From contig JBGVFN010000058.1 in the NCBI GenBank assembly GCA_045121095.1, positions 646 through 64,645 on the forward strand: a stretch of 64,000 nucleotides of DNA. Reading direction: 5' to 3'. The notes under the pieces were generated by a model that saw only the letters and a program-made list of their open reading frames with translations, was not told the DNA's origin and searched no databases. Of this stretch, positions 11,398 through 46,597 are shown piece after piece. The DNA comes from Lachnospiraceae bacterium (GTDB taxonomy: Bacteria > Bacillota > Clostridia > Lachnospirales > Lachnospiraceae). Numbering within the stretch: position 1 is the first letter of the stretch; every line of letters begins with the position of its first letter. The position numbers were made by a program, and so were the translations under genes.

Positions 11398-11437
11398 GCA
11401 GGCCGACAGTGTTTCATGTGAAACACTGTCGGCCTGC
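11398..11437. terminator. 40-bp hairpin between convergent genes carrying a 15/16 parS core
   Basis: gcaggccgacagTGTTTCATGTGAAACActgtcggcctgc. Core at 11410..11425. Confidence 0.7.
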
Positions 11438-11528
11438 GTTATGAGTTCTGTTCTAATCATTTCGCTTTATCAGCTCTGATTTTTTCACCTTATGCGTTCT
11501 GATTTTACATCATCGGCCCTGTTTTTTA

Positions 11529-12029
11529 CTACCTTACCGCACCATTTCCACTGGCACCGCTTCCGTTCACACCACTTCCATTCGCATCGCTTCCGTTGCG
11601 TACATTGCTGTCATTGGCCGCATTGTCTTCCGTGGTTGTAGTTGTTCGATTTCGCTCTGTACCATTCGTACCACTATTAGTACCCTCATGCACCGTGCCA
11701 TTTTCTGTGCCGTTTTCCACACCATCATACACAGTCTGGCTTTCTGTACCATGATTTAAAGTTCCATTTTTCTCCGTTTCTGTACCATTTTTATGGTTCA
11801 GGTTTTCGTTATTATCCAGCGTACCATTATGATTTCTATCCTCTTCATATACCCCGTCATGCATGGTACCAGTTTCACCTGTCAGATCATCCCAGCCTCT
11901 TTCCGCAGCCGATTCCGTATCCTCCACAGCACGGCATGCAGACAAAGAAAACATCAGGCAAAGCAGCATCAGCATAACACCCATGGTCTTTGCTGTACTT
12001 CTGCTTTTTTCATTGCGTTTACCTTTCAT
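11529..12029 (-). CDS. N/G/T-rich low-complexity lipoprotein
   Basis: ORF 11529..12035 (TTG) trimmed to ATG 12029. Lipobox LSAC. The mature part is dominated by NGT/NGS triplets. Confidence 0.5.
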   Translation of the reverse strand: MKGKRNEKSRSTAKTMGVMLMLLCLMFSLSACRAVEDTESAAERGWDDLTGETGTMHDGVYEEDRNHNGTLDNNENLNHKNGTETEKNGTLNHGTESQTVYDGVENGTENGTVHEGTNSGTNGTERNRTTTTTEDNAANDSNVRNGSDANGSGVNGSGASGNGAVR

Positions 12030-12165
12030 CGTCAATACTTCCCTTCTTTTTCAGTGTAAAACAAGACAACAATTCACCAGGAGCGGATGCTCTGCCGAAT
12101 TGTTACAAAAAATAAAGCGGAAATCCCGATACAGGATTTCCACTTTAGCATGTCCGAATTATTCT

Positions 12166-12290
12166 GTTTTATCCAGGCTTTCGTTTATCCAAGTTTTTCT
12201 TGTTCAAAGTTTTTCTTATCCAAACTTCTTCTTATCCAAGTCTTTCTTGTTCAAAGTTTTTCTTATTCAAACTTCTTCTTATCCAAGTTT
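12166..12290. repeat. 15-bp tandem array (about 8 units, 45-bp higher order) of DnaA-box-like TTATCCA motifs
   Basis: Units include TTATCCAGG, TTATCCAAG, TTGTTCAAA, TTATCCAAA, TTATCCAAG, TTGTTCAAA, TTATTCAAA, TTATCCAAG. The last unit supplies the stop of CDS 12279..12908. Confidence 0.85.
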
Positions 12291-12908
12291 TATTTTTACC
12301 ATTTCTTTGATCACTTCTGCACATTTTTCCATGCCCAGTCTTCCACTGTTCAAAATCAGATCATATGCTTTGGGATCTTTCCATTCCTGTCCGCGGGAAT
12401 AGTATTTGTAATAATCAGAGCGATATTTGTCCGTTTTTAAAATCAGACGCTCTGCTTCTGCATCACCTACGCAAAGGCGTTCCTTTACATTTTCAATGCA
12501 ATAATCCATATCTGCTTCCACAAATACACTGACCACATTAGGATAATCTTTTAATGCAAGATTTCCGCATTTACCGATGATGATGCAGGATTCTGTTTCT
12601 GCCAGATGGCGGATGATTTCTGCCTGAATATTGAACAGGTTATCATCCGAAACAAATCTCTTATCCGTAGGCTTTGCAATACGATTAATATTGGGGAATC
12701 CTGCCAGCATTTTCTGAATATAAGAACCTCTCAGCTTTTCATCTACCTGTGCAAATAACTGTTCATTAATACCGCTGTAATCAGATGCCATACGCAGCAG
12801 CTGATCTTCGTAACAGGGAATTCCCAGTTCTTCGCTCAGATTAATACCGATGGTTTTACCGCCGCTTCCGAAGCCGCGTGAAATAGTAATTACATAGGGT
12901 TTATCCAT
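12279..12908 (-). CDS. Cytidylate kinase-like family P-loop protein (paralog 1)
   Basis: 209 aa. [16 protein letters not shown]-loop. About 60% identical by eye to the CDS at 32460..33098. Confidence 0.65.
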   Translation of the reverse strand: MDKPYVITISRGFGSGGKTIGINLSEELGIPCYEDQLLRMASDYSGINEQLFAQVDEKLRGSYIQKMLAGFPNINRIAKPTDKRFVSDDNLFNIQAEIIRHLAETESCIIIGKCGNLALKDYPNVVSVFVEADMDYCIENVKERLCVGDAEAERLILKTDKYRSDYYKYYSRGQEWKDPKAYDLILNSGRLGMEKCAEVIKEMVKIKLG

Positions 12909-12963
12909 AATCTACCTCCCGAAATTAAACTCTTTCTTCTGGAAATAGTATATCACATATCTA

Positions 12964-13755
12964 TCACAGGGGTAACTTCAGTTCAAAATATTTTTCCATA
13001 ATTTCGTAAAGTTCATGTTTATCATGAATTTCTGTTTTGGTGACTGTGCCATTTTCAATAATTGTGAGTGTATTTCCCATAACGCCAATACTTCCATCAG
13101 CGGTTCTTCGATTGAGGAATGGAATCTGAGTAAAAATAGAGTCCGGGCAGCAGCCGCAATATTCGTTGTTGGGGATGAAAGTTACGTTGTGCTGAGGCAT
13201 GGGGTAAAACTGCAGTACATTTTCTATTTCACCGCTGGAAGTGGTCCGGCTGACCGTCCACCAGTATTCATCTGTTTTTTTTACGTGATAGGTTTCTCCA
13301 TGCATGGTCCGTGAAAATCCATCTTCTATCAGCAAAAGTCCTGCAGGCATGGGGCCGCCGAATCCCACATCATAGAAGTATTTTTTACCATCCAGCTCCA
13401 CCACATTTACCCGGTGCAGAACCGGAGGTACTTCCGTCTTATTACGCACGATCCGACCCATACATCCATACGCATGATATCCCAGATCTTTCAAGAGCTG
13501 TGTGAACAAAGCGTTCAATTCAAAGCAATAACCCCCTCTGTGGTTGGTAACAATCTTTTCAAACACAGCAGGAATTTCCAGAGAAACCGGTTTATGAAAT
13601 TCATATGAATCCATATTTTCAAATACGACTTTCTGCTGGTGGATGTAGATCAAATTGTCCAAATATTCGAAATCCGCCTGATCAGGTGCATCCACCTGCA
13701 GACGGTTCAAATAAGCACCAATATCGGGGATTGGTGAATATAACTTGTCATGCAT
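12964..13755 (-). CDS. Arylamine N-acetyltransferase
   Basis: 263 aa. RGGYCFELN active-site Cys block typical of the NAT family. Confidence 0.75.
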   Translation of the reverse strand: MHDKLYSPIPDIGAYLNRLQVDAPDQADFEYLDNLIYIHQQKVVFENMDSYEFHKPVSLEIPAVFEKIVTNHRGGYCFELNALFTQLLKDLGYHAYGCMGRIVRNKTEVPPVLHRVNVVELDGKKYFYDVGFGGPMPAGLLLIEDGFSRTMHGETYHVKKTDEYWWTVSRTTSSGEIENVLQFYPMPQHNVTFIPNNEYCGCCPDSIFTQIPFLNRRTADGSIGVMGNTLTIIENGTVTKTEIHDKHELYEIMEKYFELKLPL

Positions 13756-15499: not shown

Positions 15500-15509
15500 T
15501 TATTATCAG

Positions 15510-16439: not shown

Positions 16440-17430
16440 ATGTTAACTAAAAAACAGAATTTAATTGAAACCATGAAAGGCGGAAATCCCGACCGTTTTG
16501 TAAACCAGTATGAAGCATTTGCCATGATCGTTGGAAGTCCCTTCGGTGAACACAACCCCGCACCCAAACGCGGTGAATTAAATGTAATCAACGCATGGGG
16601 AATTAAAAAATCATGGCCTGAAAATGTACCCGGTGCATTCCCTGTACATAACGCAGAAAGCATCGTATGCAAAGATATCACCAACTGGAGAGAATATGTA
16701 AAAGCTCCCAACGTAGTATATCCTGCAGAAGCATGGAAACCCTACATCGAAAAAGCCGCTGCTGTAGACAGAAACGAACAGTACGTAACCGCATTTATCG
16801 CTCCCGGTATCTTCGAACAGTGCCATTACCTGCTGGAAATCCAGGAATGTCTCATTAATTTCTACGAAGAACCCGAAGCAAATGCACGAACTCATCGATT
16901 ATATCACCGACTGGGAACTGGCATACGCAGAAGAACTCTGCAAATATCTGAAACCCGATGCTATTTTCCATCACGATGACTGGGGCAGCCAGATTTCAAC
17001 CTTCCTTTCTCCCGAAATGTTTGAAGAATTCTTCCTGCCTGCATACAAAAAAGTTTATGGATATTACAAAGAACACGGCGTAGAGCTGATCATCCATCAC
17101 TCCGACTCCTACGCAGCAACTCTGGTTCCCTACATGATCGAAATGGGAATTGATATCTGGCAGGGCGTTATGAACTCCAACAACATCCCTGAACTGATCA
17201 AAAAATACGGCGGACAGATCACATTCATGGGCGGCGTTGACAGCGCAGCCGTAGATTACGAAGGATGGACCAAAGAAGTGGTTCACAAAGAAGTAGAACG
17301 CGCATGCCGCGAATGCGGAAAACATTACTTCATCCCCAATGCATCCCAGGGACTTCCCATGAGTACATTCCCCGGTGTATATGAAGCATTATCCGAAGAA
17401 ATCGACAACATGAGCAAAGTTATGTTCTAG
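16440..17430 (+). pseudogene. URO-D family (MtaA/CmuA-like) corrinoid methyltransferase MT-I, single-base frameshift
   Basis: ORFs 16440..16979 and 16882..17430 join collinearly with the paralog at 17446..18501. EEPEA|MHELIDYITDW aligns with EEPEELTAFYDKLVDW. There is an extra A in the run at 16879..16881. Confidence 0.7.
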
Positions 17431-17445
17431 AAAGGATAACTAACA

Positions 17446-18799: not shown

Positions 18800-19708
18800 C
18801 TAAATATATTTCAAATACATTTCATTTAAAATTCGTACATGCAGTTCTTCGTCTTTTATTATGCGCCGCAAATTCTCCCGCACATATTCATCTTTAATCC
18901 ACTGACACTGTTTCTGATAATTCCGGATAGCCTGCTGTTCTCCCTCTATCGCGCGTTTTAATAATCTCAAAAAATCCGTGGAATAAAAATTATATCCTGC
19001 ATTCCAGTACCGCATACGCCCACTTCCTCCCGAAAATCTTCTCGAAAATCCCCTCTGTCCCTGTTCCAAACTCCAAAACCGGGGATCTGCCCCCAAAAGA
19101 CAGGCAAGCTGTCCAAAAATAGACAAATGATGCATCTCAACAATACTGATTTCATGAAAAATCAATGCCGCCTCTTCCATCTCCAAAAATCCCTTTGTAA
19201 CAAATCCATTATATACATACTGCGTAATAGTCGAAAGTTCCGAATGCCTGCCTCCCATGTTCCCTAACATCGCATATGCATAACGCCTGTTCTTCCTTTC
19301 CACCTGTACCGGAGGATAAGGCGCCTCGTCCGCAACTCGAATACCGGAAAAAGGCATTCGTCCAACCACATTTTTCACATCCATATCCTGTACTGCTGTA
19401 TTCTGTGCAGGCATATCCGGTTCCATTATTTCCTGTTTAACCGTCTCCCGTTCGACTGTATCCTGTACAAGCATATCCGGTTCCATCACTTTGTGTTTAA
19501 CTGTATTCTGTTCGGCTGTACCCTGCATAAACACATCCGGTTCCATCGCTTTGTATTTAACTGTATTCTGTTCGGCTGTATTTTGTATAGTTGCATTCCG
19601 TTCTATTGCATTTTGCTGAATCATGCTCTGTGCTTTTTCGCTTTGCACACCTGTATTTCGTGTCATCCGATTTCTTGAAACATTATTTCTCATAGTCGCG
19701 TTTCCCAT
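18800..19708 (-). CDS. Ferritin-like (rubrerythrin/Mn-catalase superfamily) protein with repetitive N-terminal extension
   Basis: The C-terminal ~170 aa carry paired E..H-type helices (EISIVEMHH, KDEELHVR) and the block PYPPVQVERKNRRYAYAMLG...SELSTITQYVY. The N-terminus is four 20-aa repeats. Confidence 0.5.
   Translation of the reverse strand: MGNATMRNNVSRNRMTRNTGVQSEKAQSMIQQNAIERNATIQNTAEQNTVKYKAMEPDVFMQGTAEQNTVKHKVMEPDMLVQDTVERETVKQEIMEPDMPAQNTAVQDMDVKNVVGRMPFSGIRVADEAPYPPVQVERKNRRYAYAMLGNMGGRHSELSTITQYVYNGFVTKGFLEMEEAALIFHEISIVEMHHLSIFGQLACLLGADPRFWSLEQGQRGFSRRFSGGSGRMRYWNAGYNFYSTDFLRLLKRAIEGEQQAIRNYQKQCQWIKDEYVRENLRRIIKDEELHVRILNEMYLKYI
19381..19620. repeat. 60-bp x4 in-frame tandem repeat in the ferritin-like gene
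   Basis: Period exactly 60 bp. Encodes AEQNTVK(Y/H)K(A/V)MEPD-type 20-aa units. Confidence 0.85.
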
Positions 19709-20022: not shown

Positions 20023-20859
20023 TTACAATCTTATTGTCATAATTTTCACCAGCTGTTCTGACAATTTTTCCAATTTCTCCGCACTCATGCCAAGAGCCCG
20101 AATCACCAGATCGCCGTCCCAGGTATATGTAAAACCTCCGGTAATTCGTTCAGATTCTGCATTCTCCAGAACTTTCTGAATCTTTTGTTCCTGTTCTTTT
20201 TCCAGAGAAATATTGCAAAACAGCAAATTCAAAAGAAATTCATATCCTTCATACAGGCCAAAGCCAGACATATTTCCAGCAAAACCCGAATTTTTTCCTT
20301 TTTGATCAGGTTCATACCTTGTATTGTCACGATAACTCAGGATTTTTTCTTCCATGCCTTTATAAATCTCCACATAATTATCATAACGCCGGTAAGAAAA
20401 TTTTTCTCCCATAGCAGTCCGTCCCGAACAAAGAATGTCGCTCATAATCAATCTGGAATCCGGCTTTTGAAGTCGAATCCGCGTGCGGCTTCGAAAATCC
20501 GATCCGGCAAATGGGATTACTGGTTGTGGACGGAAATAAAGTATTGCATTTTCTTTCACATGAATCTCTGTTTCACGTGATGCAAATCCAGAATCCATAC
20601 CATGTATTTTTTCATATGCCTGAGAAGTAATCTCCACTTTACTTCCCTCCCCAATTTCAAAAGAATATTTCTGCCGATCACCTGCCATCGTCCCGGCTGA
20701 AACAGACATAATCATAATTTCTTTCCAGCCATCTTTTCTGTCAAAAGGATGCATTACTTTAAAAGGCGCACTAAAATACAAATCCTCCACTTCTGTCATG
20801 CTATCCTGTTTTTTTGTCCGAATAAAAACTTCTGACACTCTGCCAAACTGATTTTCCAT
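20023..20859 (-). CDS. ureD: Urease accessory protein UreD/UreH
   Basis: 278 aa. Family-typical sequence and position at the end of the ure cluster. Confidence 0.8.
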   Translation of the reverse strand: MENQFGRVSEVFIRTKKQDSMTEVEDLYFSAPFKVMHPFDRKDGWKEIMIMSVSAGTMAGDRQKYSFEIGEGSKVEITSQAYEKIHGMDSGFASRETEIHVKENAILYFRPQPVIPFAGSDFRSRTRIRLQKPDSRLIMSDILCSGRTAMGEKFSYRRYDNYVEIYKGMEEKILSYRDNTRYEPDQKGKNSGFAGNMSGFGLYEGYEFLLNLLFCNISLEKEQEQKIQKVLENAESERITGGFTYTWDGDLVIRALGMSAEKLEKLSEQLVKIMTIRL

Positions 20860-22746: not shown

Positions 22747-22780
22747 GGTATCCTCCTGCTTGCTATTTTTATATCTAATT

Positions 22781-22978
22781 TCTCAAATAATAGTTTTAAA
22801 TAAGATTTTTCAAATAGTGTCTTTTGAATAATAATTTTCAAATAACGTTTTTCAAATAACGTTTTTCAAATAATAGTTTCCAAATAATAGTTTGCAAATA
22901 ATGATTTCCAAATAATAGTTTCCAAATAATGGTTTCCAAATAATGGTTTTCAAATAACGTCTTTCAAATGATGTTTTA
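22781..22978. repeat. 14-bp x14 tandem array in the ureE-ureF spacer
   Basis: CAAATA recurs at 22839, 22853, 22867 ... 22965 with an exact 14-bp period (units such as ttcaaataacgttt and tccaaataatagtt). Confidence 0.9.
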
Positions 22979-23034: not shown

Positions 23035-23060
23035 GAAAATGTTTCACGTGAAACATTTTC
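23035..23060. other. parS site (perfect 16/16) within a 26-bp perfect palindrome
   Basis: gaaaaTGTTTCACGTGAAACAttttc. Core at 23040..23055. Confidence 0.8.
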
Positions 23061-25258: not shown

Positions 25259-26528
25259 TGCATTTTGCCTCCTTCTTCAGGGTTTTCTTCTGATTTTTTA
25301 CTGTTTTACCTGTTGTTTGTTTATCTATTATTCGTTCATCTGTTGTGTATTTATTTGTTGTTATCTTATCTGCTGCTTGCTTATCTATTGTTTGTTTATC
25401 TATTATTTCTTTATTTGTTGTTTGCTCCACAGCATGCTCCACGCACTCTTTTCTAACTCTTTTAGCCTGCATTTTATGAAAAAATGTAGGAATCTGCTCT
25501 GTGACAATGCCCACAATACCACCTTTAAAGAACAAAATCACAACAACAAATAATGCACCAATAATATACTGCCAGATTTCAACTAATGCTCCTGAGCTCA
25601 GATGATATTCACACAGGTTTACCAGAAAAGCACCAATAACAGCACCAATTAATGTTCCACGTCCGCCAATTGCCACCCAGATAACCATTGTAACAGAATA
25701 AGAAATTGTCATCTGCGTCGGAGTAATCGATCCGTTTAAATTTACAAATAATGCACCTGCTAAAGCCGCAAATACTGCTGAAAGGATGTAGACCACATTT
25801 TTGTAACGGCTTACGCAATAGCCTGAAAAATAAGTACGATTCTCCCCATCGCGAATAGCAATCAATAACTTACCAAATTTTCGTGTTACCAAAAAGCTGG
25901 CTAATGCATATACAAGAATCATCACCACCAAAGTCAGATAAAACAAAGAAATCAGATTCCCCTCATTTTTTGGTCCTTTAATGCTGCCAAACAAAGATTT
26001 TATTTCTGTAATACCTACATTACCATTAGTATACGGAGATAATGCAATGAACAAAGAATATGCAGCCCAGGTTAATGCCTGTGAAATAATAGAAAAATAT
26101 ACGCCTTTTACGCGGCTCTTAAAAATGAAATATCCTAAAATACCAGCTAATGCACCTGGGATTAGCAACATAAAAATCAAAGTATTGGGAAGATAGCGAA
26201 ACATTTTCCAAATGGCAGGAAGTTCTGTCAACCCCCCTACCTGCATAAAATCTGTTATCCTACCTCCCGTCGCCTGCAATTTCAGGTACATCCCCATACC
26301 ATAAGCGCCTAATGCGAAATAAAGTCCATGACCTAAACTCAAAATTCCGGTATAACCCCAAATCAAATCCAGCCCAATAGCAACCATAGCAAAACACATG
26401 CATTTCGCTAAATATAATACTAACGTGCTTTTTACCATACCCGCCTGTAAAAGTATTGGCATAACTGCCAATGCAATCACAATAATACTAAAGCAGATAT
26501 TTTTTCCGTTCTTTTTTATTAAATTCAT
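25251..26528 (-). CDS. urtC: Urea ABC transporter permease UrtC with a ~65-aa repetitive C-terminal extension
   Basis: LivM-like permease core. The tail TTNKEIIDKQTIDKQAADKITTNKYTTDERIIDKQTTGK is encoded by the 15-bp array at 25306..25425. Confidence 0.8.
   Translation of the reverse strand: MNLIKKNGKNICFSIIVIALAVMPILLQAGMVKSTLVLYLAKCMCFAMVAIGLDLIWGYTGILSLGHGLYFALGAYGMGMYLKLQATGGRITDFMQVGGLTELPAIWKMFRYLPNTLIFMLLIPGALAGILGYFIFKSRVKGVYFSIISQALTWAAYSLFIALSPYTNGNVGITEIKSLFGSIKGPKNEGNLISLFYLTLVVMILVYALASFLVTRKFGKLLIAIRDGENRTYFSGYCVSRYKNVVYILSAVFAALAGALFVNLNGSITPTQMTISYSVTMVIWVAIGGRGTLIGAVIGAFLVNLCEYHLSSGALVEIWQYIIGALFVVVILFFKGGIVGIVTEQIPTFFHKMQAKRVRKECVEHAVEQTTNKEIIDKQTIDKQAADKITTNKYTTDERIIDKQTTGKTVKNQKKTLKKEAKCNV
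25306..25425. repeat. 15-bp x8 tandem array translated as the UrtC tail
   Basis: Units such as ttatctattgtttgt. Composition resembles the non-coding array at 21871..21990. Confidence 0.85.
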
Positions 26529-27508: not shown

Positions 27509-27599
27509 ACAATTTATCGAACATTCCCAAAACACAAAATGGCATACGGTGGACCCCTCATTGGATCATCGCATGCCATTTATAATGTTTTATTTTCCG

Positions 27600-27698
27600 T
27601 ATTTCACATGAAACATCTATTTATAATGCCCTGTTTTCCATGTTTCATATGAAACATTTTACTTGCAATGCTCTGTTTTCATGTTTCATGTGAAACAT
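27600..27698. repeat. ~40-bp x3 tandem array, each unit carrying a degenerate parS
   Basis: TATTTCACATGAAACA (27600..27615, 14/16), TGTTTCATATGAAACA (27641..27656, 14/16), TGTTTCATGTGAAACA (27682..27697, 15/16). Lies between urtA and urtB. Confidence 0.8.
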
Positions 27699-29336: not shown

Positions 29337-29392
29337 TTTTTTCAAACGTTTCTTTAAATGTTTTTCAAATGTTCCTTTAAATATTTTTCAAA
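29337..29392. repeat. ~23-bp x2.5 tandem repeat running into a parS
   Basis: ttttcaaacgtttctttaaatg / tttttcaaatgttcctttaaatat / ttttcaaatgtttcac... The units contain a parS half-site-like AA(T/C)GTT(T/C)C. Confidence 0.7.
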
Positions 29393-29408
29393 TGTTTCAC
29401 GTGAAACA
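29393..29408. other. parS site (perfect 16/16)
   Basis: TGTTTCACGTGAAACA between ureC and the urtA promoter. Confidence 0.8.
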
Positions 29409-29497: not shown

Positions 29498-31219
29498 CTA
29501 AAACAAACTATACATCTGTGTTAAAGGCAATTTTTTTGCCGGTTTGGACACTAGACGCACTCCATCTGCTGACACTTCATATGTTTCCGGATTTACTTTA
29601 ATTTCCGGTGTTTTATCGTTGTATCGCATATCGCATTTTCCTATATTGCGGCATTTTGATACCGGCAGTACTTTCTTCTGTAATTCTAACCTTTCTTTAA
29701 TACCATTCTTATAAGCAGCACTCGAAACAAAGGTCGCACAAGATTCATATTTTGCGCCACCATGAGCAGCAAACATGGGCTGATACATCACCGGCTGAGT
29801 AGTGGGAATTGACGCATTTGCATCCCCCATTTTTGCCGCAACAATCATTCCGCCTTTAATAATAATATCGGGTTTGACTCCAAAAAAGGCAGGATTCCAC
29901 AATACCAGATCTGCCATTTTTCCTACTTCCACAGAACCTACGTAATCTGCCACGCCATGTGTTACTGCAGGATTAATAGTATATTTGGAAATATAACGTT
30001 TCACGCGAAAATTATCATTTCCATTTTCCTGGTCTTCTGGCAATGCCCCACGTTCTTCTTTCATCTTATGAGCAGTCTGCCACGTGCGGGTAATCACTTC
30101 TCCCACACGTCCCATAGCCTGAGAATCAGAGCTCATCATACTAAATACGCCTAGATCATGCAATACATCTTCAGCAGCAATCGTCTCCGGTCGGATTCGT
30201 GAATCTGCAAAAGCTACATCTTCCGGTATTTTGTTATCTAAATGATGACAAACCATTAACATATCCAGATGTTCATCAATAGTGTTAATCGTGAATGGCA
30301 TAGTCGGATTGGTAGAAGACGGCAAAACATTCAAAAAAGAAGCAGCGCGAATAATATCCGGTGCATGTCCGCCTCCAGCCCCTTCTGTATGATACGTATG
30401 AATTGTTCTTCCTGCAATTGCATCAATGGTATCTTCCACACAGCCACCCTCATTTAAAGTATCTGTATGAATCGCCACCTGTACATCATATTCATCCGCC
30501 ACATTTAAACAATGATTGATGACTGCAGGAGTTGCACCCCAATCTTCATGGATTTTCAATCCCATGGCTCCAGCTTCTATCTGTTCCCGAAGGGGACGTT
30601 CATCAGAGCAATTTCCTTTTCCCAGAAATCCAAGATTAATCGGATATTCATCCGCAGCCTTGAGCATCATTCCCAGATTCCACGCCCCTGGAGTACAGGT
30701 AGTTGCATTGGTTCCATCTGCGGGTCCAGTACCACCGCCTATCATAGTTGTCACACCAGAATACAAGGCACAATTAATCTGCTGAGGAGAAATAAAATGA
30801 ATATGTGTATCAATTCCCCCAGCTGTTAAAATCATATTTTCTCCGGCCAAAGCCTCTGTAGAAGCCCCCACTGTCATTCCCGGCGTCACACCATCCATAT
30901 TATCCGGATTTCCAGCCTTTCCGATACCTGAAATTTTTCCATCTTTAATACCAATATCTGCTTTAAAAATACCAGTCGAGTCTACCACCAGACAATTTGT
31001 TATTACCAGATCCAGAACGCCTTCATCACGTGTAGCTTTTACGCTTTGTCCCATTCCATCACGCAATGTTTTTCCACCGCCAAATTTTGCTTCTTCACCA
31101 TAAGTCGTATAATCTTTTTCCACCTCTATAATTAAATTTGTATCCGCCAACCGCACTTTATCACCGGTGGTAGGACCAAACATCATGGCATACTTCTCAC
31201 CAGAAATTATATAGCTCAT
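29498..31219 (-). CDS. ureC: Urease alpha subunit UreC
   Basis: 573 aa. GGIDTHIHF and MVCHHL signatures. Confidence 0.97.
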
Positions 31220-33350: not shown

Positions 33351-35864
33351 CTACAGTAAGCTATCTTTTTTTATTCTCTCACCTCGTCTCACAAGATACA
33401 AAACCACGATTAATATACCTGCAAATGTCATCCACATACCCAACTGTTTTCCAGGTGCCTGATATAATACATCAATTTCATGTATTCCCTGAGATAATTT
33501 CGCTCCTAAAAAACCTTCATTTACCATCTCTATTTCTACCTCATCCCCATCAACCAATACAATAAAATTTTCATCATACGGAATAGAAGTAATCAAATAG
33601 CCATCTTTTTGCATCTCCATATATCCTGATACCACAGATTGCGCCTGTGATTCGTATAACAAATCATTATCCTTTAACAAAAATTTCGATTCATATAACT
33701 CATCACTATCTTTCAATGGAACCGTATATGCTTCTGCCTCAGATATCTCATAAATGCCTTCGCCAAAATTTAATGTAATCTGTTTTTGGCCCGCTGCTAA
33801 CAAAACTGCATATGAAAAAACCGTATTTTCATTATAATAAATATGGCTGTCCGCAGAAAGTTTATTTCTGGAATCTTCCACGTCGATAGTTACATCCTGA
33901 TTTTTCTTATTTTTCACATGAAACCGAACAAATAAAATGCGATTCTGATCCGATACAGGTACTGCTATTTTTATTTTTCCCTGAGGATTACCTTCTATTT
34001 TGCGGGCAATATCAATTTCATGAACGCTGCCCATCTTTTTAATTGGAGACTCTAAACATGCAGTATTATGTTCCTCCTCTACAATTGCATATTCCAGAAA
34101 TGCCAATTGATTATATGGAAAGTTTAATTTTTCATAATCTTTTGTACTCAATATTCTGGATGTCCCATAAATTATGGGCGCTGCATTTTCGTCCTCATGA
34201 AGCTGCATGTCTTGAGAAATCCAATATTTCACTCCCATCATTTTTCGAAATACCACATTCTGATTCAAACCTTCCATTAAAATATTTCGATTTGGCTTTT
34301 CCACATCAAAAATATAATTTCTAAATGTACTATAAAATGAATTATAGGTAGACGAATAGACCGAAGTAATATTTTGTTTCACGTGAAACACTCTATTAAT
34401 ATTTGTAAAGTTTTCTTTTGCAGATCCGTAGTATTCCATTCGATAAAAAGACGTGTCTTCTTCCAAAACATCCTCCATCAGTTGAGAAATCCCCTGCTGT
34501 TTTTTCTTATCTAAATCAGCAGCATCAAGTCCCATATTTTCATCGGCACAGGCAACGCTCATAGCAATCACAGCTATACACAAAGAAGGAATTATAATTA
34601 CTCTAAAATCTTTTTTCCAGTGAAAATATACAAACACAGAAAATGCCACTACAAATAAATCCGTAAGCCAACCAGCAAACTCCACATTTTCCCTTTTAAA
34701 CATGACAAAATACATTAATATCAGCATCAATACCGGTATTATTTTCTTCTGATCTTTCCTGGTTTGCGTTTTCAAAGAAGAAATCCATAACCCCATTTCC
34801 ATACACACCAATGGGATAAAAGGGATCAAGGCTTTACCCCGATTATATAGAAAACCATTCAGCGCATAACCAATAAACGGGGACCAAAGTACAATAACTA
34901 AACTGATACTCAAAACTTTTTCCGATAATTTCCTCTGAAAACATCCTAAAATAATAGCCACCAATGAAATACATCCCAAGCCCATTCCATATTTGTCATG
35001 TAAAATTCTGGACGGTTCACCAACTGGCCAAAAAAGAGCTATAACATCAAAAATTTCTTTTTCGTTTCCATTACTTCGACCATCCAATAAGGCAAATGCC
35101 GTAGGTACAAGAAAAAAACTACTTATTAAAATACTTGTAAAAATAACTGCCACATATCTAAAAGCTTCCTTTAAAATCCCTCTGCACGTCAACTTTTCAT
35201 TTGTCCATTCTGCCTTTTCCAAATAGCAGTAAAGTGCATACAAACAAAGACATATCATTCCACCTATACTAAAATAGAAGCTACTCAAGATCATCAAAAC
35301 AACACTTACACACAGTAAGCCTTTTCGATTTTTGCAAAAATACCAATCCGTTCCTATAAGCCCAAGACATAGAAATGGCATGTAATTTACAAACATTACC
35401 TGCGTACAAAAATGATAAAACAACGGTGCTGCAGTCAGAAATAATAATGTAACTCCAAACCCCAGAGAATGCGATATCTTTTTTTCAGTTACCCAGCAAT
35501 AAAATAATATTCCGGAAAGACCATATGAAATCAAAGAAACGCCCATCATCCAATCATCCATAGAAATCCCCGGAAATAAATACGATAATAGAATACATGG
35601 GTTTAACAATCCATAATAAGCGAAGTTAAAAATATTTTGTCCCCCACCAATCTGCATAGCAAAATCTGGATACAATTCCCCCGTTTCGTAAAACAGCTTT
35701 CGAAAATAATCGGGAAACACGCTGTGCTGCGACAACCAATCAACCTTTGATCCCACAATCTTTCCCTGAAAAAACAAAAAAATAGCCGCCACTCCCGCAG
35801 CAGCTAAAAATAACATTACAATATATCTACATTTAAGGTATTTCAGGTCAGATTTTTCTTTCAT
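33351..35864 (-). CDS. yfhO: YfhO-family polytopic membrane glycosyltransferase
   Basis: 837 aa: many N-terminal TM segments plus a large extracytoplasmic C-terminal domain. Directly downstream of a GT2 CsbB/GtrB-like gene. Confidence 0.7.
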   Translation of the reverse strand: MKEKSDLKYLKCRYIVMLFLAAAGVAAIFLFFQGKIVGSKVDWLSQHSVFPDYFRKLFYETGELYPDFAMQIGGGQNIFNFAYYGLLNPCILLSYLFPGISMDDWMMGVSLISYGLSGILFYCWVTEKKISHSLGFGVTLLFLTAAPLFYHFCTQVMFVNYMPFLCLGLIGTDWYFCKNRKGLLCVSVVLMILSSFYFSIGGMICLCLYALYCYLEKAEWTNEKLTCRGILKEAFRYVAVIFTSILISSFFLVPTAFALLDGRSNGNEKEIFDVIALFWPVGEPSRILHDKYGMGLGCISLVAIILGCFQRKLSEKVLSISLVIVLWSPFIGYALNGFLYNRGKALIPFIPLVCMEMGLWISSLKTQTRKDQKKIIPVLMLILMYFVMFKRENVEFAGWLTDLFVVAFSVFVYFHWKKDFRVIIIPSLCIAVIAMSVACADENMGLDAADLDKKKQQGISQLMEDVLEEDTSFYRMEYYGSAKENFTNINRVFHVKQNITSVYSSTYNSFYSTFRNYIFDVEKPNRNILMEGLNQNVVFRKMMGVKYWISQDMQLHEDENAAPIIYGTSRILSTKDYEKLNFPYNQLAFLEYAIVEEEHNTACLESPIKKMGSVHEIDIARKIEGNPQGKIKIAVPVSDQNRILFVRFHVKNKKNQDVTIDVEDSRNKLSADSHIYYNENTVFSYAVLLAAGQKQITLNFGEGIYEISEAEAYTVPLKDSDELYESKFLLKDNDLLYESQAQSVVSGYMEMQKDGYLITSIPYDENFIVLVDGDEVEIEMVNEGFLGAKLSQGIHEIDVLYQAPGKQLGMWMTFAGILIVVLYLVRRGERIKKDSLL
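34375..34390. other. parS site (perfect 16/16) inside the yfhO coding sequence
   Basis: TGTTTCACGTGAAACA, read as VFHVKQ in YfhO. Confidence 0.7.
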
Positions 35865-36844: not shown

Positions 36845-37130
36845 CTCTGTCTTCCTCTAATAAATAATAAATCGAGTATCTTTCTCATGCGCTTTAGGTA
36901 CTCCCGGTTCTGAATGCCTTCTAATTTTTGAATCCATACAATTAAAAAGGCCCAAAGAATATGTGTATATTCAATTACTGCCTTTACACACATTCCCTAG
37001 ACCTTAAAATACCAAATACTACCACCTTACACAATATAATTAAATGTATTTTAAAACAATATTAAAGATCTCAATTGAAAATTTGCACTTTCTTTTGATA
37101 TTTTTAAATATATTTAACCTTTTATTTTTT

Positions 37131-37281
37131 CTATTTCTTTTATTTTTGCATTTCTTATTTTTTGCATTTCTTATTTTTTCTATTTCTTTTATTTTTGCAT
37201 TTCTTTTATTTTTGCATTTCTTTTATTTTTGTATTTCTTATATTTTTGTATTTCTTATATTTTTGCATTTTTCTTATTCTG
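37131..37281. repeat. 16-17-bp x9 tandem array
   Basis: Units gcatttcttttattttt / ctatttcttttattttt. The last unit overlaps the spmA stop. Confidence 0.85.
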
Positions 37282-38235: not shown

Positions 38236-38289
38236 ATATATGCAAATAAAGAGTATTGATTATAATCAATACTCTTTATTTGCATATAT
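38236..38289. repeat. 54-bp perfect palindrome
   Basis: atatatgcaaataaagagtattgatta|taatcaatactctttatttgcatatat, with no central spacer. Confidence 0.9.
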
Positions 38290-38564: not shown

Positions 38565-39584
38565 CTAATACTCTTTACAGGAAAATTTTTCTTTACAGCC
38601 TTGGGAATAAGTGACATTTCCATCTTGATCAATAAAAATAGCCCACACATCATCTATGCTGTTAATCAAATCCAAACCCTTTTCTAATCCTAATGCAAAA
38701 CAAGTGGTGGAAAGTCCGTCTCCATCTACAGACTTTTCTGAAATAATGGTTACACTGGCTAAACCATTGTCATAAGAATATCCTGTTTCAGGGTCTAAAA
38801 TATGATGATATTTCTTTCCATCTACAGTAATATAACGTTCATAATCTCCTGATGTTACCAGGGATTGGTCTGAAAGTAAAACACTGACTTTAGCTTCTCT
38901 TTCAGGTGCACTCTCTGGATTCTGAATTCCCAAATGAAAATCATCTCCCGATGGTTTGCTGCCAATGCAGACTACATTTCCACCTAAACTAATGGTTGCA
39001 CTTTCTACGCCCTGATCCACCAGATATTCCTTTACCCGATCTGCAATATATCCTTTGGCAATGGCCCCCAGATCAATTCCCATACCATCTTCCAACGATA
39101 CATGATTTCCTTCCAGTTTCACGTTTTTATAATCTACATACTGCAAATGATCCTGGATTGCCTGTGCATCTGGAAGCTTATTTTCACCAGATGTAAAATC
39201 CCATAACGATGATATTGGTTCAATCGTTATATCAAATGCTCCATCAGATAACTCACCATAATAAAGACCTTTTTCTAAAAGCTCCGCTGTTTCATCTGAA
39301 ACAACTGCTTCTCCATTTTCATTTAATAATGAAATTTCACTATCTTCCACGGTTCTTGAAAGCTTTTTCTCATAGTCTGAACATAATTTAAAACAATCTG
39401 TTATGAGCTGTTCGTCATCTGTTCCATATAGCGTAATTTCTATTTGTGTATTCAATGCATAACCAATACGGCTAACTGACTCTTCTTCATTGCTCTTTCC
39501 ACATCCGCTTAAACCTGCTAAAAATGCAGCAGTTAAACACATACCACTCAATAATGAAACTATTCGTTTTCGTCTTTTGCCCAT
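38565..39584 (-). CDS. apbE: FAD:protein FMN transferase (ApbE family) lipoprotein
   Basis: ORF 38565..39599 trimmed to MGKRRKR (GGAGA RBS). Lipobox LSGCG. ApbE blocks (AIAKGY, HHILDP). Confidence 0.85.
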   Translation of the reverse strand: MGKRRKRIVSLLSGMCLTAAFLAGLSGCGKSNEEESVSRIGYALNTQIEITLYGTDDEQLITDCFKLCSDYEKKLSRTVEDSEISLLNENGEAVVSDETAELLEKGLYYGELSDGAFDITIEPISSLWDFTSGENKLPDAQAIQDHLQYVDYKNVKLEGNHVSLEDGMGIDLGAIAKGYIADRVKEYLVDQGVESATISLGGNVVCIGSKPSGDDFHLGIQNPESAPEREAKVSVLLSDQSLVTSGDYERYITVDGKKYHHILDPETGYSYDNGLASVTIISEKSVDGDGLSTTCFALGLEKGLDLINSIDDVWAIFIDQDGNVTYSQGCKEKFSCKEY

Positions 39585-42391: not shown

Positions 42392-42435
42392 AAAGCCTGT
42401 GAAAATGTTTCACGTGAAACATTTTCACAGGCTTT
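42392..42435. terminator. 44-bp perfect palindrome between convergent genes with a perfect parS at its apex
   Basis: aaagcctgtgaaaaTGTTTCACGTGAAACAttttcacaggcttt. Core at 42406..42421. Confidence 0.8.
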
Positions 42436-42580
42436 ATATTTGTATAGAACTTTATATCGCACAAAACTTTATATTACATTAACTTTCTAATCTACAAGAT
42501 TTATATTGCATAAACTTTATAGTCTACAAGCCTTATATTTCATAAACTTTATAGTCTACATAACTTATATTCTTATAAAG
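42436..42580. repeat. ~32-bp tandem array (about 4 units)
   Basis: taaactttatagtctaca recurs at 42511 and 42543, with diverged units upstream. Confidence 0.75.
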
Positions 42581-42583
42581 GTT

Positions 42584-43687: not shown

Positions 43688-43761
43688 AATTATTTTCTCC
43701 TGTTCTGATATTTATCTCTTTACCATTTATATAATTAAAAATAAAAGGTATAAATTTCCCA

Positions 43762-43805
43762 AAACGTCTATGAAATGTTTCACGTGAAACATTTTATAGA
43801 CGTTT
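43762..43805. other. parS site (perfect 16/16) at the apex of a 44-bp near-perfect palindrome
   Basis: aaacgtctatgaaaTGTTTCACGTGAAACAttttatagacgttt (1 mismatch). Core at 43776..43791. Confidence 0.8.
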
Positions 43806-43825
43806 AAGCCATACAAATGGCTTTC

Positions 43826-43898
43826 AACTATATTAAACACCTTTTAGCTGTATAAACACCCTTCAGCTATATAAACATCCTTCAGCTATATGAATCCC
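43826..43898. repeat. 18-19-bp x4 tandem array
   Basis: Units of the type cttcagctatataaacatc. Confidence 0.75.
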
Positions 43899-43955
43899 TT
43901 TTTGTTATCGTAAAAACCTTAAAGAATTTTCCAACTTGTTTATCCGTTAAAGTAT

Positions 43956-43999
43956 AAAACAGAAATGGAGCAATGTCTACTAAAACATTGCTCCATTTC
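43956..43999 (-). terminator. Intrinsic terminator of the DUF4446 gene
   Basis: The minus strand reads gaaatggagcaatg-loop-cattgctccatttc followed by tgtttt. Confidence 0.65.
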
Positions 44000-44061
44000 T
44001 TATGCATAATTTATACAGAATAAATTATCCATTCCTACTCTATAACGATTTTATAAAGATT

Positions 44062-44574
44062 CTATAAAGGTTTCATCTCCATTGCTTTCTCCAGAGCCTT
44101 CTGTTCCTCTTTTCCAAGAAGCACATCACATTTACCTTCTTTAATTTCCTTCATGTACAGATAACTGCCCTCTCTGGTATGAATGGAATTAATCATAATT
44201 CCACTGTTTTTCAAATCCAGCATAGCTAACGCGAAACTTACCTGTCCACCCATGCCGGTTAATGCATCATATTTTACAACGCCTACTTTTTGATAACATC
44301 CAGAAATGACTTTATTCATATCAGATATTTCAGACTCGATTTTCTGATCTGTCTGCTGTAATTTCTTAATATCTTCTACTTCTGTTTGAATCAATTCTTC
44401 CAGTGATTTTGCGTCGCTTCCTTCCATAAACTTTCTATACTTCTTCTTTAAGCCACCCAATTTCACCAGACACACAATCACCATAATAAACAGTAAAAGT
44501 GTAACAGCTCCAAGTCCCACAAGCACATATGCAGGATCAAACAATAAATCATTTAACATACTGTTTTCTAACAT
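44062..44574 (-). CDS. DUF4446 membrane-anchored protein
   Basis: 170 aa with one N-terminal TM helix. Conserved position downstream of parB in Firmicutes. Confidence 0.65.
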   Translation of the reverse strand: MLENSMLNDLLFDPAYVLVGLGAVTLLLFIMVIVCLVKLGGLKKKYRKFMEGSDAKSLEELIQTEVEDIKKLQQTDQKIESEISDMNKVISGCYQKVGVVKYDALTGMGGQVSFALAMLDLKNSGIMINSIHTREGSYLYMKEIKEGKCDVLLGKEEQKALEKAMEMKPL

Positions 44575-44646
44575 TTTTCAATCTCCATCTTCTTTTCTCG
44601 TAACGATTCAATTGCGATTCACTACAATTTACTTTTTTGCTAAAAT

Positions 44647-45564
44647 TTAATGAATCTGTTGAAATAAATCCAGTAAGCGTTCCAACTCATCTAAAGAATA
44701 ATATTCTATTTCAATTTTGCCTTTATCATTTTTCTTATTTTTAATACTTACCTTTGTCCCCATAACCTGTTTAAGCAGATTCTCATAATTTTGGTAAATC
44801 AGCTTCGTCTGCTCATCTACGGGTTCTTCTTTCTTTTCCTCATTTTTTTCTTCCTGAGGTTCATTTACCAATTTAACCAGTTCTTCTGTTTCACGCACAC
44901 TCAAGCCTTCTTCTACGATCCGGGTTGCAAGATCATACTGCTCATCCAGATTTTCTAATGCAAGAAGTGCTCTGGCATGACCACTGGTTATCTGCCGGTA
45001 AATAAGCATTTGCTGTACGTCTTTATCCAGCTTCAGCAAACGAATAGAGTTAGCAATGGCAGCTCTGCTTTTACAAACCTTCTGGGAAATTTCATCCTGT
45101 TTCATGTGAAACTCCTGCATCAAACGCTGATAAGCCATCGCTTCTTCAATAGGATTCAAATCTTCACGTTGAATATTCTCAATCAGAGAAATTTCCATAA
45201 TTTCCTGCTCTGTCAGATTTTTAACCACAACAGGAACTGTTTTCAAGCCTGCAAGTTGAGCGGCTCTCCATCTCCGTTCTCCAGTAACAATTTCGTAGTG
45301 CTTATCTTTTTTTACCACCACTAATGGCTGAATAATACCATGCTGCTTTATGGATTCTGCCAGTTCATTGAGCGCAGCCTCATCAAATGACTTTCTTGGC
45401 TGCTCTTTATTCGGCTCAACCATACTGATCTTCACCATAAAATCTCCATTTTCTTTTTCTGGTGATACTTTGACCTGCTCCTTTTCCTTCTGAGTATCCT
45501 CTTTCAATACGCCCTGAGGAATCAATATATCTAACCCTTTTCCAAGACCACCTTTTCTCGCCAT
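44647..45564 (-). CDS. parB: Chromosome partitioning protein ParB/Spo0J
   Basis: ORF trimmed to MARKGGLGKGLD (GGAGAGG RBS). GERRWRAA box and HTH. Confidence 0.95.
   Translation of the reverse strand: MARKGGLGKGLDILIPQGVLKEDTQKEKEQVKVSPEKENGDFMVKISMVEPNKEQPRKSFDEAALNELAESIKQHGIIQPLVVVKKDKHYEIVTGERRWRAAQLAGLKTVPVVVKNLTEQEIMEISLIENIQREDLNPIEEAMAYQRLMQEFHMKQDEISQKVCKSRAAIANSIRLLKLDKDVQQMLIYRQITSGHARALLALENLDEQYDLATRIVEEGLSVRETEELVKLVNEPQEEKNEEKKEEPVDEQTKLIYQNYENLLKQVMGTKVSIKNKKNDKGKIEIEYYSLDELERLLDLFQQIH
45098..45113. other. parS-like site (14/16) inside parB
   Basis: TGTTTCATGTGAAACT, read as EFHMKQ. Confidence 0.45.
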
Positions 45565-45576
45565 CTTCACCTCTCC

Positions 45577-46350
45577 TTATTCCTGAAGTTCCGCATTTGC
45601 AATTACTTCTTCTGCCAATAAGCGATATGCTTCAGCTCCTGCCGATCTGGAATCATACATATTAATAGGAAGACCATGGCTGGGTGCCTCTGCCAAACGT
45701 ACATTTCTCGGAATAATTGTTTTATAAATATTCTGTTTCAAATATCCCTTTACGTTTTCCACTACCTGCAACGACAAATTGGTTCTGGCATCATACATAG
45801 TAAACACAACCCCTTCAATATCCAATGAAGGATTCAGACGTTCTTTCACCAGACTGATGGTATAAATCAACTGGCTAAGTCCTTCCAATGCATAATACTC
45901 ACACTGAATGGGAACAAGAACCGTATCAGCAGTTGTCATTGCATTAATCGTCAGCATACTTAATGACGGAGGGCAATCAATAATAACAAAATCATACTGA
46001 TCTCTGATTGCAGCCACACTGTCTCTTAATATGTATTCTTTTCTGTCAACTCCAATTAACTCAATCTCACATCCGGATAAATCTACATTAGACGGCAGCA
46101 CATCCAGATTTTCAAAAACCTCATGAACAATACATTCTTCAATAGGTGCTTCACCTAAAAGCAGATCATATACTGTATATTTCTGATCATTTTTATCCAA
46201 TCCAAAACCGCTTGTACTATTTCCCTGAGGATCCATATCGATTGCAAGTACATGCTTTCCTTCAGCAGCCAGACAGGCAGATAAATTAATACTGGTAGTA
46301 CTTTTGCCTACTCCACCTTTCTGATTTGCAACTGCAATAATTCTTCCCAT
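45577..46350 (-). CDS. parA: Chromosome partitioning ATPase ParA/Soj
   Basis: 257 aa. Deviant Walker A NQKGGVGKST. Confidence 0.95.
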   Translation of the reverse strand: MGRIIAVANQKGGVGKSTTSINLSACLAAEGKHVLAIDMDPQGNSTSGFGLDKNDQKYTVYDLLLGEAPIEECIVHEVFENLDVLPSNVDLSGCEIELIGVDRKEYILRDSVAAIRDQYDFVIIDCPPSLSMLTINAMTTADTVLVPIQCEYYALEGLSQLIYTISLVKERLNPSLDIEGVVFTMYDARTNLSLQVVENVKGYLKQNIYKTIIPRNVRLAEAPSHGLPINMYDSRSAGAEAYRLLAEEVIANAELQE

Positions 46351-46428
46351 ATATCCTGATTTCCTTTCACTAAGCTATCTCTCAATACATACTCTCAATA
46401 CATATATACAAAAATTGGTAACAGTTCA

Positions 46429-46481
46429 GCCTTGGCTGAACTGTCTTGAATAAATTCAGCAGGATGGCGCTGAACTTTGTA
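46429..46481. repeat. REP-like element (GTTCAGC family)
   Basis: taacagttcagccttggctgaactgtcttgaataaattcagcagg. Near-identical to 59211..59250. Confidence 0.8.
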
Positions 46482-46581
46482 TATTGAGGACACTTATCTT
46501 TATTTTCCTATTAAACTTTTCAATCTGAAAACTGAACTCATTATAACACTATTCAAAATACAATTCTACGTTTTTTTTGAT

Positions 46582-46597
46582 TGTTTCACGTGAAACA
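46582..46597. other. parS site (perfect 16/16)
   Basis: TGTTTCACGTGAAACA in the rsmG-parA spacer. Confidence 0.8.

Follow-up and report, generated by a model that had tools for sequence, protein, structure and literature searches.

A putative chromosomal centromere (parS cluster) next to oriC in an uncultured Lachnospiraceae bacterium of the gut

Introduction

The closest precedent for the locus described here has been studied experimentally in Corynebacterium glutamicum, where ten identical parS sites, all but one of them intergenic, lie within 35 kb to one side of oriC; the cluster is backed by ParB ChIP-seq and SMC-dependent Hi-C, and sites with at least three mismatches do not recruit ParB (Bohm et al. 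2020, PMC7083940). In Caulobacter, the five strongest sites lie inside 5 kb (PMC5815017). Bacillus subtilis has 10 parS sites, 8 of them near the origin, and Streptomyces coelicolor has 21 origin-proximal ones (PMC7022226). For the Lachnospiraceae, we found no study of parS in the literature.

Here we analyze, in an uncultured Lachnospiraceae bacterium of the gut, a stretch of 64 kb (the window) that is a canonical chromosomal origin region. Its parS-like sites share with C. glutamicum parS1-10 the 16-bp consensus, the density of about ten copies per 35 kb, the location on one side of oriC and the mostly intergenic placement (9 of 10 sites there, five of six perfect copies here). The C. glutamicum cluster, however, belongs to an actinobacterium and lies 73 kb from oriC, whereas the present one, in a clostridial Firmicute, lies 8–45 kb from it, includes parAB and adds centre variants, a strain-variable tandem array and three hairpin caps. 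A previous reading of the same DNA by a model, made from its letters (the sequence-only reading), had called the cluster exceptionally dense, an assessment that does not hold in view of C. glutamicum, Caulobacter, S. coelicolor and some Lachnospiraceae: within 10 kb on either side of parB, the window has three sites with at most one mismatch, against a family range of 2–9. The cluster is real, but of an ordinary type.

With B. subtilis, the present species shares the consensus TGTTNCACGTGAAACA, a homologous ParB and a site inside parB. The B. subtilis sites are mostly inside genes, and one of them was reportedly placed by Lin and Grossman in 1998 at 359 degrees, inside spo0J. They lie on both sides of oriC and extend across about 20% of the chromosome, in contrast with the 35 kb, one-sided and mostly intergenic arrangement found here. 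Moreover, unlike in B. subtilis, no noc gene stands beside parAB.

The Origin Region and Its Partition Proteins

On one side of the origin the gene order is rpmH-rnpA-yidC-jag-mnmE-mnmG-rsmG-parA-parB, and on the other dnaA-dnaN-recF-gyrB. Two parts of oriC can be recognized, namely the rpmH-dnaA spacer (54584–55161), with ten DnaA boxes of at most one mismatch in the 54–55 kb bin, and the dnaA-dnaN spacer (56527–56769), with seven such boxes in the 56–57 kb bin. The cumulative GC skew reaches its minimum at 56–58 kb, at the dnaA-dnaN spacer, in agreement with the box clusters and with the placement of oriC in the sequence-only reading. From this position it follows that all the parS-like sites lie on the parAB side, at 8–45 kb from the DnaA-box clusters, as had also been claimed. 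No smc or scpAB gene was found within the 64-kb window.

The parB gene (44647–45564, minus strand, GTG start codon) encodes 305 aa with the Pfam domains ParB_N, HTH_ParB and ParB_C. The protein has the N-terminal CTP-binding motif (GxxRxxA, here GERRWRA, aligned to solved ParB structures), the HTH and the C-terminal dimerization domain; it matches TIGR00180 with 207 bits against a cut-off of 58, and aligns with E values of 1e-54 to the ParB chain 7bnk_A and 4e-53 to B. subtilis Spo0J (6sdk). The noc model scores 259 bits, below its cut-off of 315, and the protein is therefore ParB and not Noc. Directly upstream of parB, parA/soj (45577–46350, minus strand) encodes a Walker-type partition ATPase of 257 aa, and both genes lie inside the parS cluster.

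Number and Distribution of the Sites

The palindrome TGTTTCACGTGAAACA, which the sequence-only reading had equated with the Firmicutes ParB/Spo0J consensus, occurs in six perfect copies (23040, 29393, 34375, 42406, 43776 and 46582), all of them exact matches to that consensus, with none expected (0 occurrences in 100 dinucleotide-preserving shuffles). Eight further matches carry one mismatch (11410 and 27682), two (20569, 27600, 27641, 39288 and 45098) or three (33910). This amounts to 14 matches with at most three mismatches, against 0.55 expected, spanning 11.4–46.6 kb; at the same threshold none was found in 1–11.4 kb or 46.6–64 kb (28.8 kb searched), and the 17 kb containing and following oriC hold no copy. 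The coordinates and mismatch counts given previously were all correct and every listed copy is real, but the 14/16 matches at 20569 and 39288 and the 13/16 match at 33910 had been overlooked; the reported absence from 47–64 kb stands even at three mismatches. All perfect copies but one fall between genes (five of six, P about 0.002). Outside the full sites, the half-sites GTTTCAC and GTTCCAC show no obvious concentration in the parS zone.

Closest to the origin, the perfect copy at 46582–46597 occupies the position typical of the family, 232 bp upstream of parA in the spacer that separates it from rsmG, and is kept in strains L001-L006. The same strains keep the 14/16 variant TGTTTCATGTGAAACT inside parB (45098–45113), which reads AGTTTCACATGAAACA on the coding strand and encodes E-F-H-M-K-Q; this same variant, in the same place, is the commonest form with one or two mismatches among the relatives, with 14 copies across 80 loci. 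The only perfect copy in coding sequence (34375–34390) lies inside a yfhO-like glycosyltransferase gene and is kept in the six strain contigs where a copy was found at that place (L150-L154 and L157). The value of the other coding matches is more doubtful. ParB binding to the 14/16 variant inside the ApbE gene (39288–39303, centre CATCTG; kept in L001, L002, L150 and L151) is uncertain, as is binding to the other two-mismatch copies, and the 13/16 match inside yfhO (33910–33925), some of whose three mismatches fall where the family seldom shows variation, is probably not a functional site. The 14/16 match inside ureD (20569–20584) is probably non-functional as well, because its mismatches fall at half-site positions 3 and 4, which never vary among the family's variants with one or two mismatches; it is conserved across strains as coding sequence.

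The Urease/urt Cluster and a Strain-Variable Tandem Array

The ureABC-urtABCDE-ureEFGD cluster holds four loci (20569, 23040, 27600–27697 and 29393), the ureD match adding one to the three that had been counted there. Two of them are perfect copies kept in L095-L097: that of the ureE-ureF spacer (23040–23055) is extended by a 5-bp palindrome on each side and lies 63 bp from a tandem repeat of 14 bp x 14, and that of the ureC-urtA spacer (29393–29408) overlaps with its left arm a 23-bp tandem repeat (29338–29398). As a side observation, a derivation from parS arms looks possible for the adjacent tandem repeats at 29338–29398 and 22779–22977; it does not look possible for those at 42433–42571, 43821–43891 and 46859–46982.

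The urtA-urtB spacer contains a tandem array with a 41-bp period (27578–27698), whose three degenerate units, at 27600 (two mismatches), 27641 (two) and 27682 (one), all lack the central CG. Its copy number is variable: L096 and L097 have three units, as in the window, and L095 and L098 have six at intervals of 41–44 bp, of which three contain a perfect parS. The layout recalls sopC of plasmid F, where a 43-bp direct repeat is present 12 times and SopB binds a 16-bp inverted repeat in every unit (PMC3177203), in that each direct repeat, 41–44 bp from the next, carries a 16-bp palindromic ParB-type site. The present array differs in being chromosomal, in having 3–6 units, another palindrome and a predicted chromosomal ParB partner, and in lying inside a urea-transporter operon, and the resemblance is one of layout only, not homology.

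Sites at the Tips of Hairpins

Three sites (11410, 42406 and 43776) cap long hairpins, which have three different stems and all stand at the ends of transcription units. The 40-bp palindrome at 11398–11437, between convergent genes, has perfect arms (12 of 12 flanking pairs) and bears at its tip the one-mismatch site 11410–11425 (centre CATGTG); its RNA fold reaches -36.8 kcal/mol (z -9.2 to -9.8) and is not followed by a clear U-run. It is kept in L087, a same-species contig whose end lies about 0.8 kb beyond the left edge of the window. On the minus strand, the 44-bp palindrome at 43762–43805, with one mismatch (13 of 14 flanking pairs), carries the perfect copy 43776–43791, follows the parA-parB-DUF4446 genes and precedes aroC. 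It folds with -24.7 kcal/mol (z -6.2) and is followed by UUUUGGG, a partial U-run; this site is present in L001-L003 and absent from L007 and L008.

The perfect 44-bp palindrome at 42392–42435 (minus strand), with the perfect parS 42406–42421 at its tip, lies between the convergent aroC and hydratase genes and folds with -30.5 kcal/mol (z -9.3). It is a predicted intrinsic terminator of aroC, showing a stem-loop, a UUUUUU run on the aroC strand and covariation. The site is orthologous in L007 and L008, which represent two other species, and in the three species together the hairpin shows five compensatory stem pairs, with 98% of positions paired; the 16-bp tip is invariant and the lower stem changes freely. 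The same hairpin-tip build is found in 9 of 135 perfect copies of relatives, against 0.1% of random positions. Our search for literature on parS and ParB together with intrinsic terminators found nothing relevant.

The Motif among Relatives

The 80 Lachnospiraceae parB loci compared (1.16 Mb) contain 136 perfect copies, 107 of them within 2 kb upstream of parB, in the rsmG-parA spacer. The relatives usually have two or three copies in the spacer upstream of parA. Close spacing is frequent (48 of 67 loci have a pair at most 120 bp apart), and L026 and L036 have arrays of 4–6 copies at 34–42 bp spacing; in some loci 6–9 sites are packed within 2.5–5 kb. The exact 16-mer, the rsmG-parA spacer site, the AGTTTCACATGAAACA variant in parB and the occurrence of closely spaced or tandem copies are all common to the typical Lachnospiraceae and to the present species. 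The difference lies in the location of the copies, which in the relatives are upstream of parA, with almost none downstream of parB (four perfect copies in about 480 kb), whereas the present species has one perfect copy upstream of parA and five at 0.9–21.6 kb downstream of parB. Among the relatives, L007 and L008 alone have a downstream site in common with it. This spread downstream of parB, a lineage trait rare among relatives, is one of three less familiar points of the locus, with the urtA-urtB array and the hairpin caps. The comparison of synteny that the sequence-only reading had called for shows the sites kept in other strains of the species, and the one at 42406 also in two other species.

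In the family's copies with one or two mismatches, the mismatches concentrate at the outermost and central half-site positions. Furthermore, two species (L056 and L073) have only variant copies near parAB and none perfect, all but one being centre variants. From these variant-only sets and mismatch positions, the CATGTG copies of the window are plausible as working sites.

Alternative Explanations

The 16-mer could be the core of a dispersed REP- or MITE-like repeat, its likeness to parS being unconnected with partition. Most copies are intergenic, several stand beside or within tandem repeats, some form part of a longer palindrome, a trait of REP elements, and one locus is a copy-number-variable array. 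But the flanks beyond 16 bp share no sequence, the extended palindromes being built on three different stems, which argues against a dispersed repeat, and the rest of the window is devoid of copies. In 50 related urt/urease loci elsewhere (644 kb, non-origin) there is no perfect copy and one match with two mismatches; the extra same-species contigs L087-L094 hold, as their sole copy with at most two mismatches, the counterpart of 11410; and in the family the motif keeps to a single place, immediately upstream of parA. This generic alternative, to which we give almost no credence, is refuted within the range of our data, namely the window, the strain contigs and the loci of relatives. The suggestion that parS is being propagated in a repeat element is likewise mostly refuted, surviving locally in the urtA-urtB array, and the related idea that the sites move with the urease segment fails on the same 50 loci, which indicate that they do not travel with the urease genes.

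These loci also bear on whether the sites of the cluster are operators of a transcription factor of urea use, or whether ParB is mainly a silencer or regulator and partition secondary, which we regard as very improbable. Four loci do lie in spacers or genes of ureABC-urtABCDE-ureEFGD, and ParB spreading can silence neighbours in some plasmid and Pseudomonas systems (PMC7022226). Yet the identical 16-mer also occurs away from the cluster, at parA, aroC, yfhO and the DUF4446 gene, and B. subtilis Spo0J leaves the expression of parS-adjacent genes unaltered (PMC7022226). Since the 50 homologous clusters of other organisms lack any perfect copy, general urease regulation does not involve the motif. 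A stronger case can be made for the hairpin-capped sites, where the selected function could be termination or RNA stability and the parS tip a passenger: the stems are strong, all three stand at transcription-unit ends, the 42406 hairpin is followed by U6 and maintained by compensatory changes, and the build recurs in relatives far above chance. We nevertheless find it somewhat unlikely, given that a plain terminator would not require a 16-bp tip invariant over three species and that the 11410 hairpin has no U-run; the two roles are not mutually exclusive, and the conservation of these sites may come partly from a terminator role rather than from ParB.

A Model for the Cluster

The origin setting, the canonical CTP-motif ParB and the presence of the 16-mer upstream of parA in 80 genomes lead us to regard these sites as parS, very probably forming the chromosomal centromere of a ParABS system. 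The palindrome, its cognate ParB and partner ParA, the origin-proximal place, the syntenic conservation and the rarity elsewhere are those of such a system. Sequence, neighbour genes and relatives all lend good support to the proposed zone of ParB, and presumably SMC, loading.

By homology with this well-studied family, CTP-bound ParB dimers would load at each parS, close into clamps and slide a few kb either way. With six to eight loading sites 1.4–8 kb apart, and 11.6 kb to the outermost one-mismatch copy (11410), the resulting ParB coats would fuse into a single zone, or a few, of roughly 25–40 kb, at 8–45 kb left of oriC, and the complex would be moved by ParA and most likely serve as a platform for SMC loading. 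ParB occupancy, spreading distance and SMC recruitment in the present organism are expectations drawn from homologous systems. In turn, since the stretch adjoins parAB and oriC, the sites would have arisen in place instead of arriving together with the urease genes, and mainly where a 16-bp palindrome harms little, that is, in intergenic spacers and at three hairpin tips at transcription-unit ends, with one locus (urtA-urtB) growing or shrinking by tandem duplication. That the centromere of this lineage is fast-evolving and strain-variable, gaining new sites by tandem duplication (6–9 perfect copies per strain) and at terminator tips, where a single sequence would act as RNA terminator stem and as DNA loading site for ParB, is a tentative extension which we hold to be rather doubtful.

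Concluding Remarks

The current picture of ParABS function is left unchanged by this locus. The analysis locates the replication origin and the putative centromere in an uncultured Lachnospiraceae bacterium of the gut, and extends to clostridial Firmicutes a layout known from Corynebacterium, in which many parS sites share some 35 kb to one side of oriC. The strain-variable array and the terminator-capping sites offer testable hints on how parS is gained and lost; if both roles are real, and if copy number tunes ParB or SMC loading, they would represent a dual-use element and a way of centromere growth that has been little described.

Genomic Context

The window represents a canonical origin region of a bacterial chromosome. 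Its minus strand encodes, with increasing distance from the origin, rpmH, rnpA, yidD, yidC, jag, mnmE, mnmG, rsmG (47093-47833), parA (45577-46350), parB (44647-45564), a DUF4446 gene and aroC; the plus strand carries dnaA (55162-56526) together with dnaN, recF, gyrB and gyrA. Clusters of DnaA boxes occupy the rpmH-dnaA and dnaA-dnaN spacers, and the cumulative GC skew reaches its turning point at 56-58 kb. Left of aroC are found a hydratase gene, an ApbE gene, glycosyltransferase genes, a ureABC-urtABCDE-ureEFGD cluster (20.0-32.3 kb) and corrinoid methyltransferase genes.

The host is an uncultured Lachnospiraceae bacterium. Among the species-representative genomes searched, the top ParB matches come from Lachnospiraceae MAGs, at 86% and 77% identity, and the same species is also represented by metagenome contigs. 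In one of these (L091, 1-10000), radical-SAM, dUTPase, TPR, HflX-like and NrdD genes precede gyrB, replacing recF-dnaN-dnaA, which corresponds either to a rearrangement beside oriC or to a misassembly. In the closest relative (L007), about 750 bp lacking any ORF of at least 100 aa (9246-10001) separate a parA-like ORF (8458-9246) from parB (10001-10918), whereas in the window parA and parB abut.

A parS Cluster Beside parAB

Six perfect copies of the 16-mer TGTTTCAYRTGAAACA, that is, the parS consensus TGTTTCACGTGAAACA, start at 23040, 29393, 34375, 42406, 43776 and 46582, compared with none across 100 dinucleotide-preserving shuffles. Copies matching at 15/16 positions start at 11410 and 27682, at 14/16 at 20569, 27600, 27641, 39288 and 45098, and at 13/16 at 33910, so that the window contains 14 matches at up to three mismatches, where 0.55 would be expected. 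Of the six perfect copies, five fall between genes, in a zone of which 20% is intergenic (P about 0.002). The sequence-only reading had placed all six perfect copies exactly, and the 15/16 copies and three of the 14/16 copies that it listed (27600, 27641 and 45098) were recovered on rescanning; its list was nevertheless incomplete, having overlooked 20569, 39288 and 33910. It had seen no site at 47-64 kb, and indeed both 46.6-64 kb and 1-11.4 kb are devoid of matches even at three mismatches.

The ParB encoded in the window presents ParB_N, HTH and C-terminal domains and the CTP-binding motif GERRWRA, and it matches two chromosomal ParBs of solved structure, with E-values of 1e-54 (ParB chain 7bnk_A) and 4e-53 (B. 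subtilis Spo0J, 6sdk). Judged from its sequence, it is a standard chromosomal ParB. Furthermore, 136 perfect copies of the 16-mer occur in 1.16 Mb of Lachnospiraceae sequence, made up of 80 loci with parB at their centre; 107 of these copies lie no more than 2 kb upstream of parB, in the rsmG-parA spacer. Together with the ParB features, these family copies bear out the original identification of the motif as parS. The cluster is thus well supported as a real parS cluster, to which ParB would be expected to bind.

The imperfect copies include CATGTG, CATATG and CATCTG variants, plus TATTTCACATG. The window's parB-internal variant, AGTTTCACATGAAACA on the coding strand, occurs at the same place in relatives (n=14 in the 80 loci) and is the most frequent parS variant among them. 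When family copies with one or two mismatches are considered, the mismatched half-site positions are mostly outermost (33/84) or central (31/84). Moreover, an Agathobacter MAG (L056) and Sellimonas caecigallum (L073) carry no perfect parS near parAB and present variants there instead, nine in the former (3429-8613) and four in the latter (6910-10416), all except one being centre variants, CATGTG or CACATG. The pattern suggests that these species can do without the central CG or have lost it. In view of both patterns, the CATGTG copies 11410 and 27682 could plausibly be functional; 20569 and 33910 probably are not, since they include mismatches at positions where the family shows little or no variation.

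Position, Density and Placement

Three readings of the cluster had been advanced or implied: that parS is propagated as part of a repeat element, that the sites move with the urease segment, and that their density is exceptional. As regards the repeat element, which the sequences compared do not bear out, the flanks of the sites beyond the 16 bp are unrelated to each other, and the only match at up to two mismatches in the additional contigs of the species is the counterpart of 11410 (in L087). As regards the urease genes, 50 related urt/urease loci from metagenomes (644 kb, UrtA 50-83% identical) contain no perfect parS and one two-mismatch match. The 23 of these loci that reach 15 kb share the same gene families, and in none of them is parAB or dnaA nearby. 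From these comparisons, the motif appears to be tied to its position beside parAB and oriC, and neither to the urease genes nor to a generic repeat.

The density, in turn, is not exceptional, and the layout has a near-identical precedent. C. glutamicum carries ten identical consensus parS in one 35-kb cluster on a single side of oriC, nine of them intergenic, for which ParB ChIP-seq and SMC-dependent Hi-C are available (PMC7083940). In Caulobacter the strongest five parS lie within 5 kb (PMC5815017), and origin-proximal sites account for 8 of 10 in B. subtilis, 4 of 4 in S. pneumoniae, 10 of 10 in C. glutamicum and 21 of 21 in S. coelicolor (PMC7022226). Within the family, two Blautia loci (L010, L013) contain 6-8 sites in 2.5 kb and the Agathobacter MAG nine in 5.2 kb; within 10 kb on either side of parB, the window has three sites that are perfect or carry a single mismatch, in a family range of 2-9. 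The cluster belongs to a well-known kind. What is unusual for the family is not density but placement downstream of parB. The window species has five perfect copies 0.9-21.6 kb downstream of parB and just one upstream of parA, and relatives have four perfect downstream copies in about 480 kb, two of which belong to the closest relatives, L007 and L008.

Arrays, Hairpins and Neighboring Features

The urtA-urtB spacer (27578-27698) contains a tandem array with a period of 41 bp. The window strain and two strain contigs (L096, L097) have three units, all without the central CG; two others (L095, L098) have six, spaced 41-44 bp, with perfect parS in three of the six, so that the number of perfect sites differs by at least three between strains. 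Two other Lachnospiraceae (L026, L036) likewise have arrays upstream of parA, with 4-6 copies at a spacing of 34-42 bp. The layout resembles that of sopC of plasmid F, with 12 repeats of 43 bp, each carrying a 16-bp inverted repeat (PMC3177203). This strain-variable array is a modest curiosity.

Twelve of the 13 tandem-repeat arrays scoring at least 90 fall inside the 12-47 kb zone that holds the parS sites (12185-46982; for example 22779-22977, 37119-37278, 42433-42571, 43821-43891 and 46859-46982), mostly within extended AT-rich spacers; five of the arrays are at a distance of 0-63 bp from a parS. The G+C content of this zone, 0.33-0.37, is below that of both sides. Both traits could be ParB-linked or could simply reflect looser gene packing. 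Coding sequences also contain tandem repeats, of 15/60 bp in urtC (25305-25424) and of 60 bp in a Mn-catalase-like gene (19384-19581); the urtC product varies between strains (425 aa, 435 aa, or 334 + 87 aa when split).

Three sites form the tips of palindromes with z-scores of -6 to -10: 11410 (11398-11437, 40 bp, perfect arms with one parS mismatch in the centre; RNA fold -36.8 kcal/mol), 42406 (42392-42435, 44 bp, perfect; -30.5 kcal/mol) and 43776 (43762-43805, 44 bp, one mismatch; -24.7 kcal/mol). Their stems differ among themselves. Convergent aroC and hydratase genes flank the 42406 hairpin, which precedes a U6 run when read on the aroC strand and has a counterpart at the corresponding position in L007 and L008. 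When the three species are compared, no change is seen in the parS tip, in the four A-U pairs flanking it or in the four lowest stem pairs; of the six pairs in between, five are altered on both sides, and pairing is retained at 98% of positions. This covariation, seen in three sequences, is suggestive, and would fit selection for an RNA terminator or upkeep of a palindrome at the DNA level alike. In relatives, 9 of 135 perfect copies sit at a palindrome tip, as against 0.1% of random positions. The parS sites capping these putative terminators are likewise modest curiosities. Two other inverted repeats have no parS: a 48-bp perfect A+T-rich palindrome (38239-38286) in the spacer between the Gate-domain and ApbE genes, and a 40-bp hairpin (43961-44000) immediately downstream of the DUF4446 gene.

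In the urease neighborhood, 30769-31068 (plus strand), antisense to ureC, matches Rfam RF02514 (5_ureB_sRNA of Helicobacter; 84.7 bits, E 2e-20), most likely as conserved urease coding sequence and not as an sRNA gene. A URO-D/MtaA-like methyltransferase gene (16440-17430) is called in two overlapping frames of 179 and 182 aa; the same split is called in strain contig L095, pointing to a conserved frameshift or pseudogene.

Proposed Function and Origin

The sequences of the sites, their number, placement and conservation, the ParAB genes and the origin are directly observed. Comparisons suggest that parS sites were gained in place, a gain that would be favoured where a palindrome is harmless, as in spacers and in hairpins ending transcription units, and that they may multiply through tandem duplication. 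By analogy with the ParB family, ParB-CTP clamps would load at each parS and then slide; with loading sites 1.4-8 kb apart, this would generate a single ParB zone, or a few of them, over some 25-40 kb beside oriC, on which ParA would act through the ParB-parS complex and where SMC would probably be loaded.
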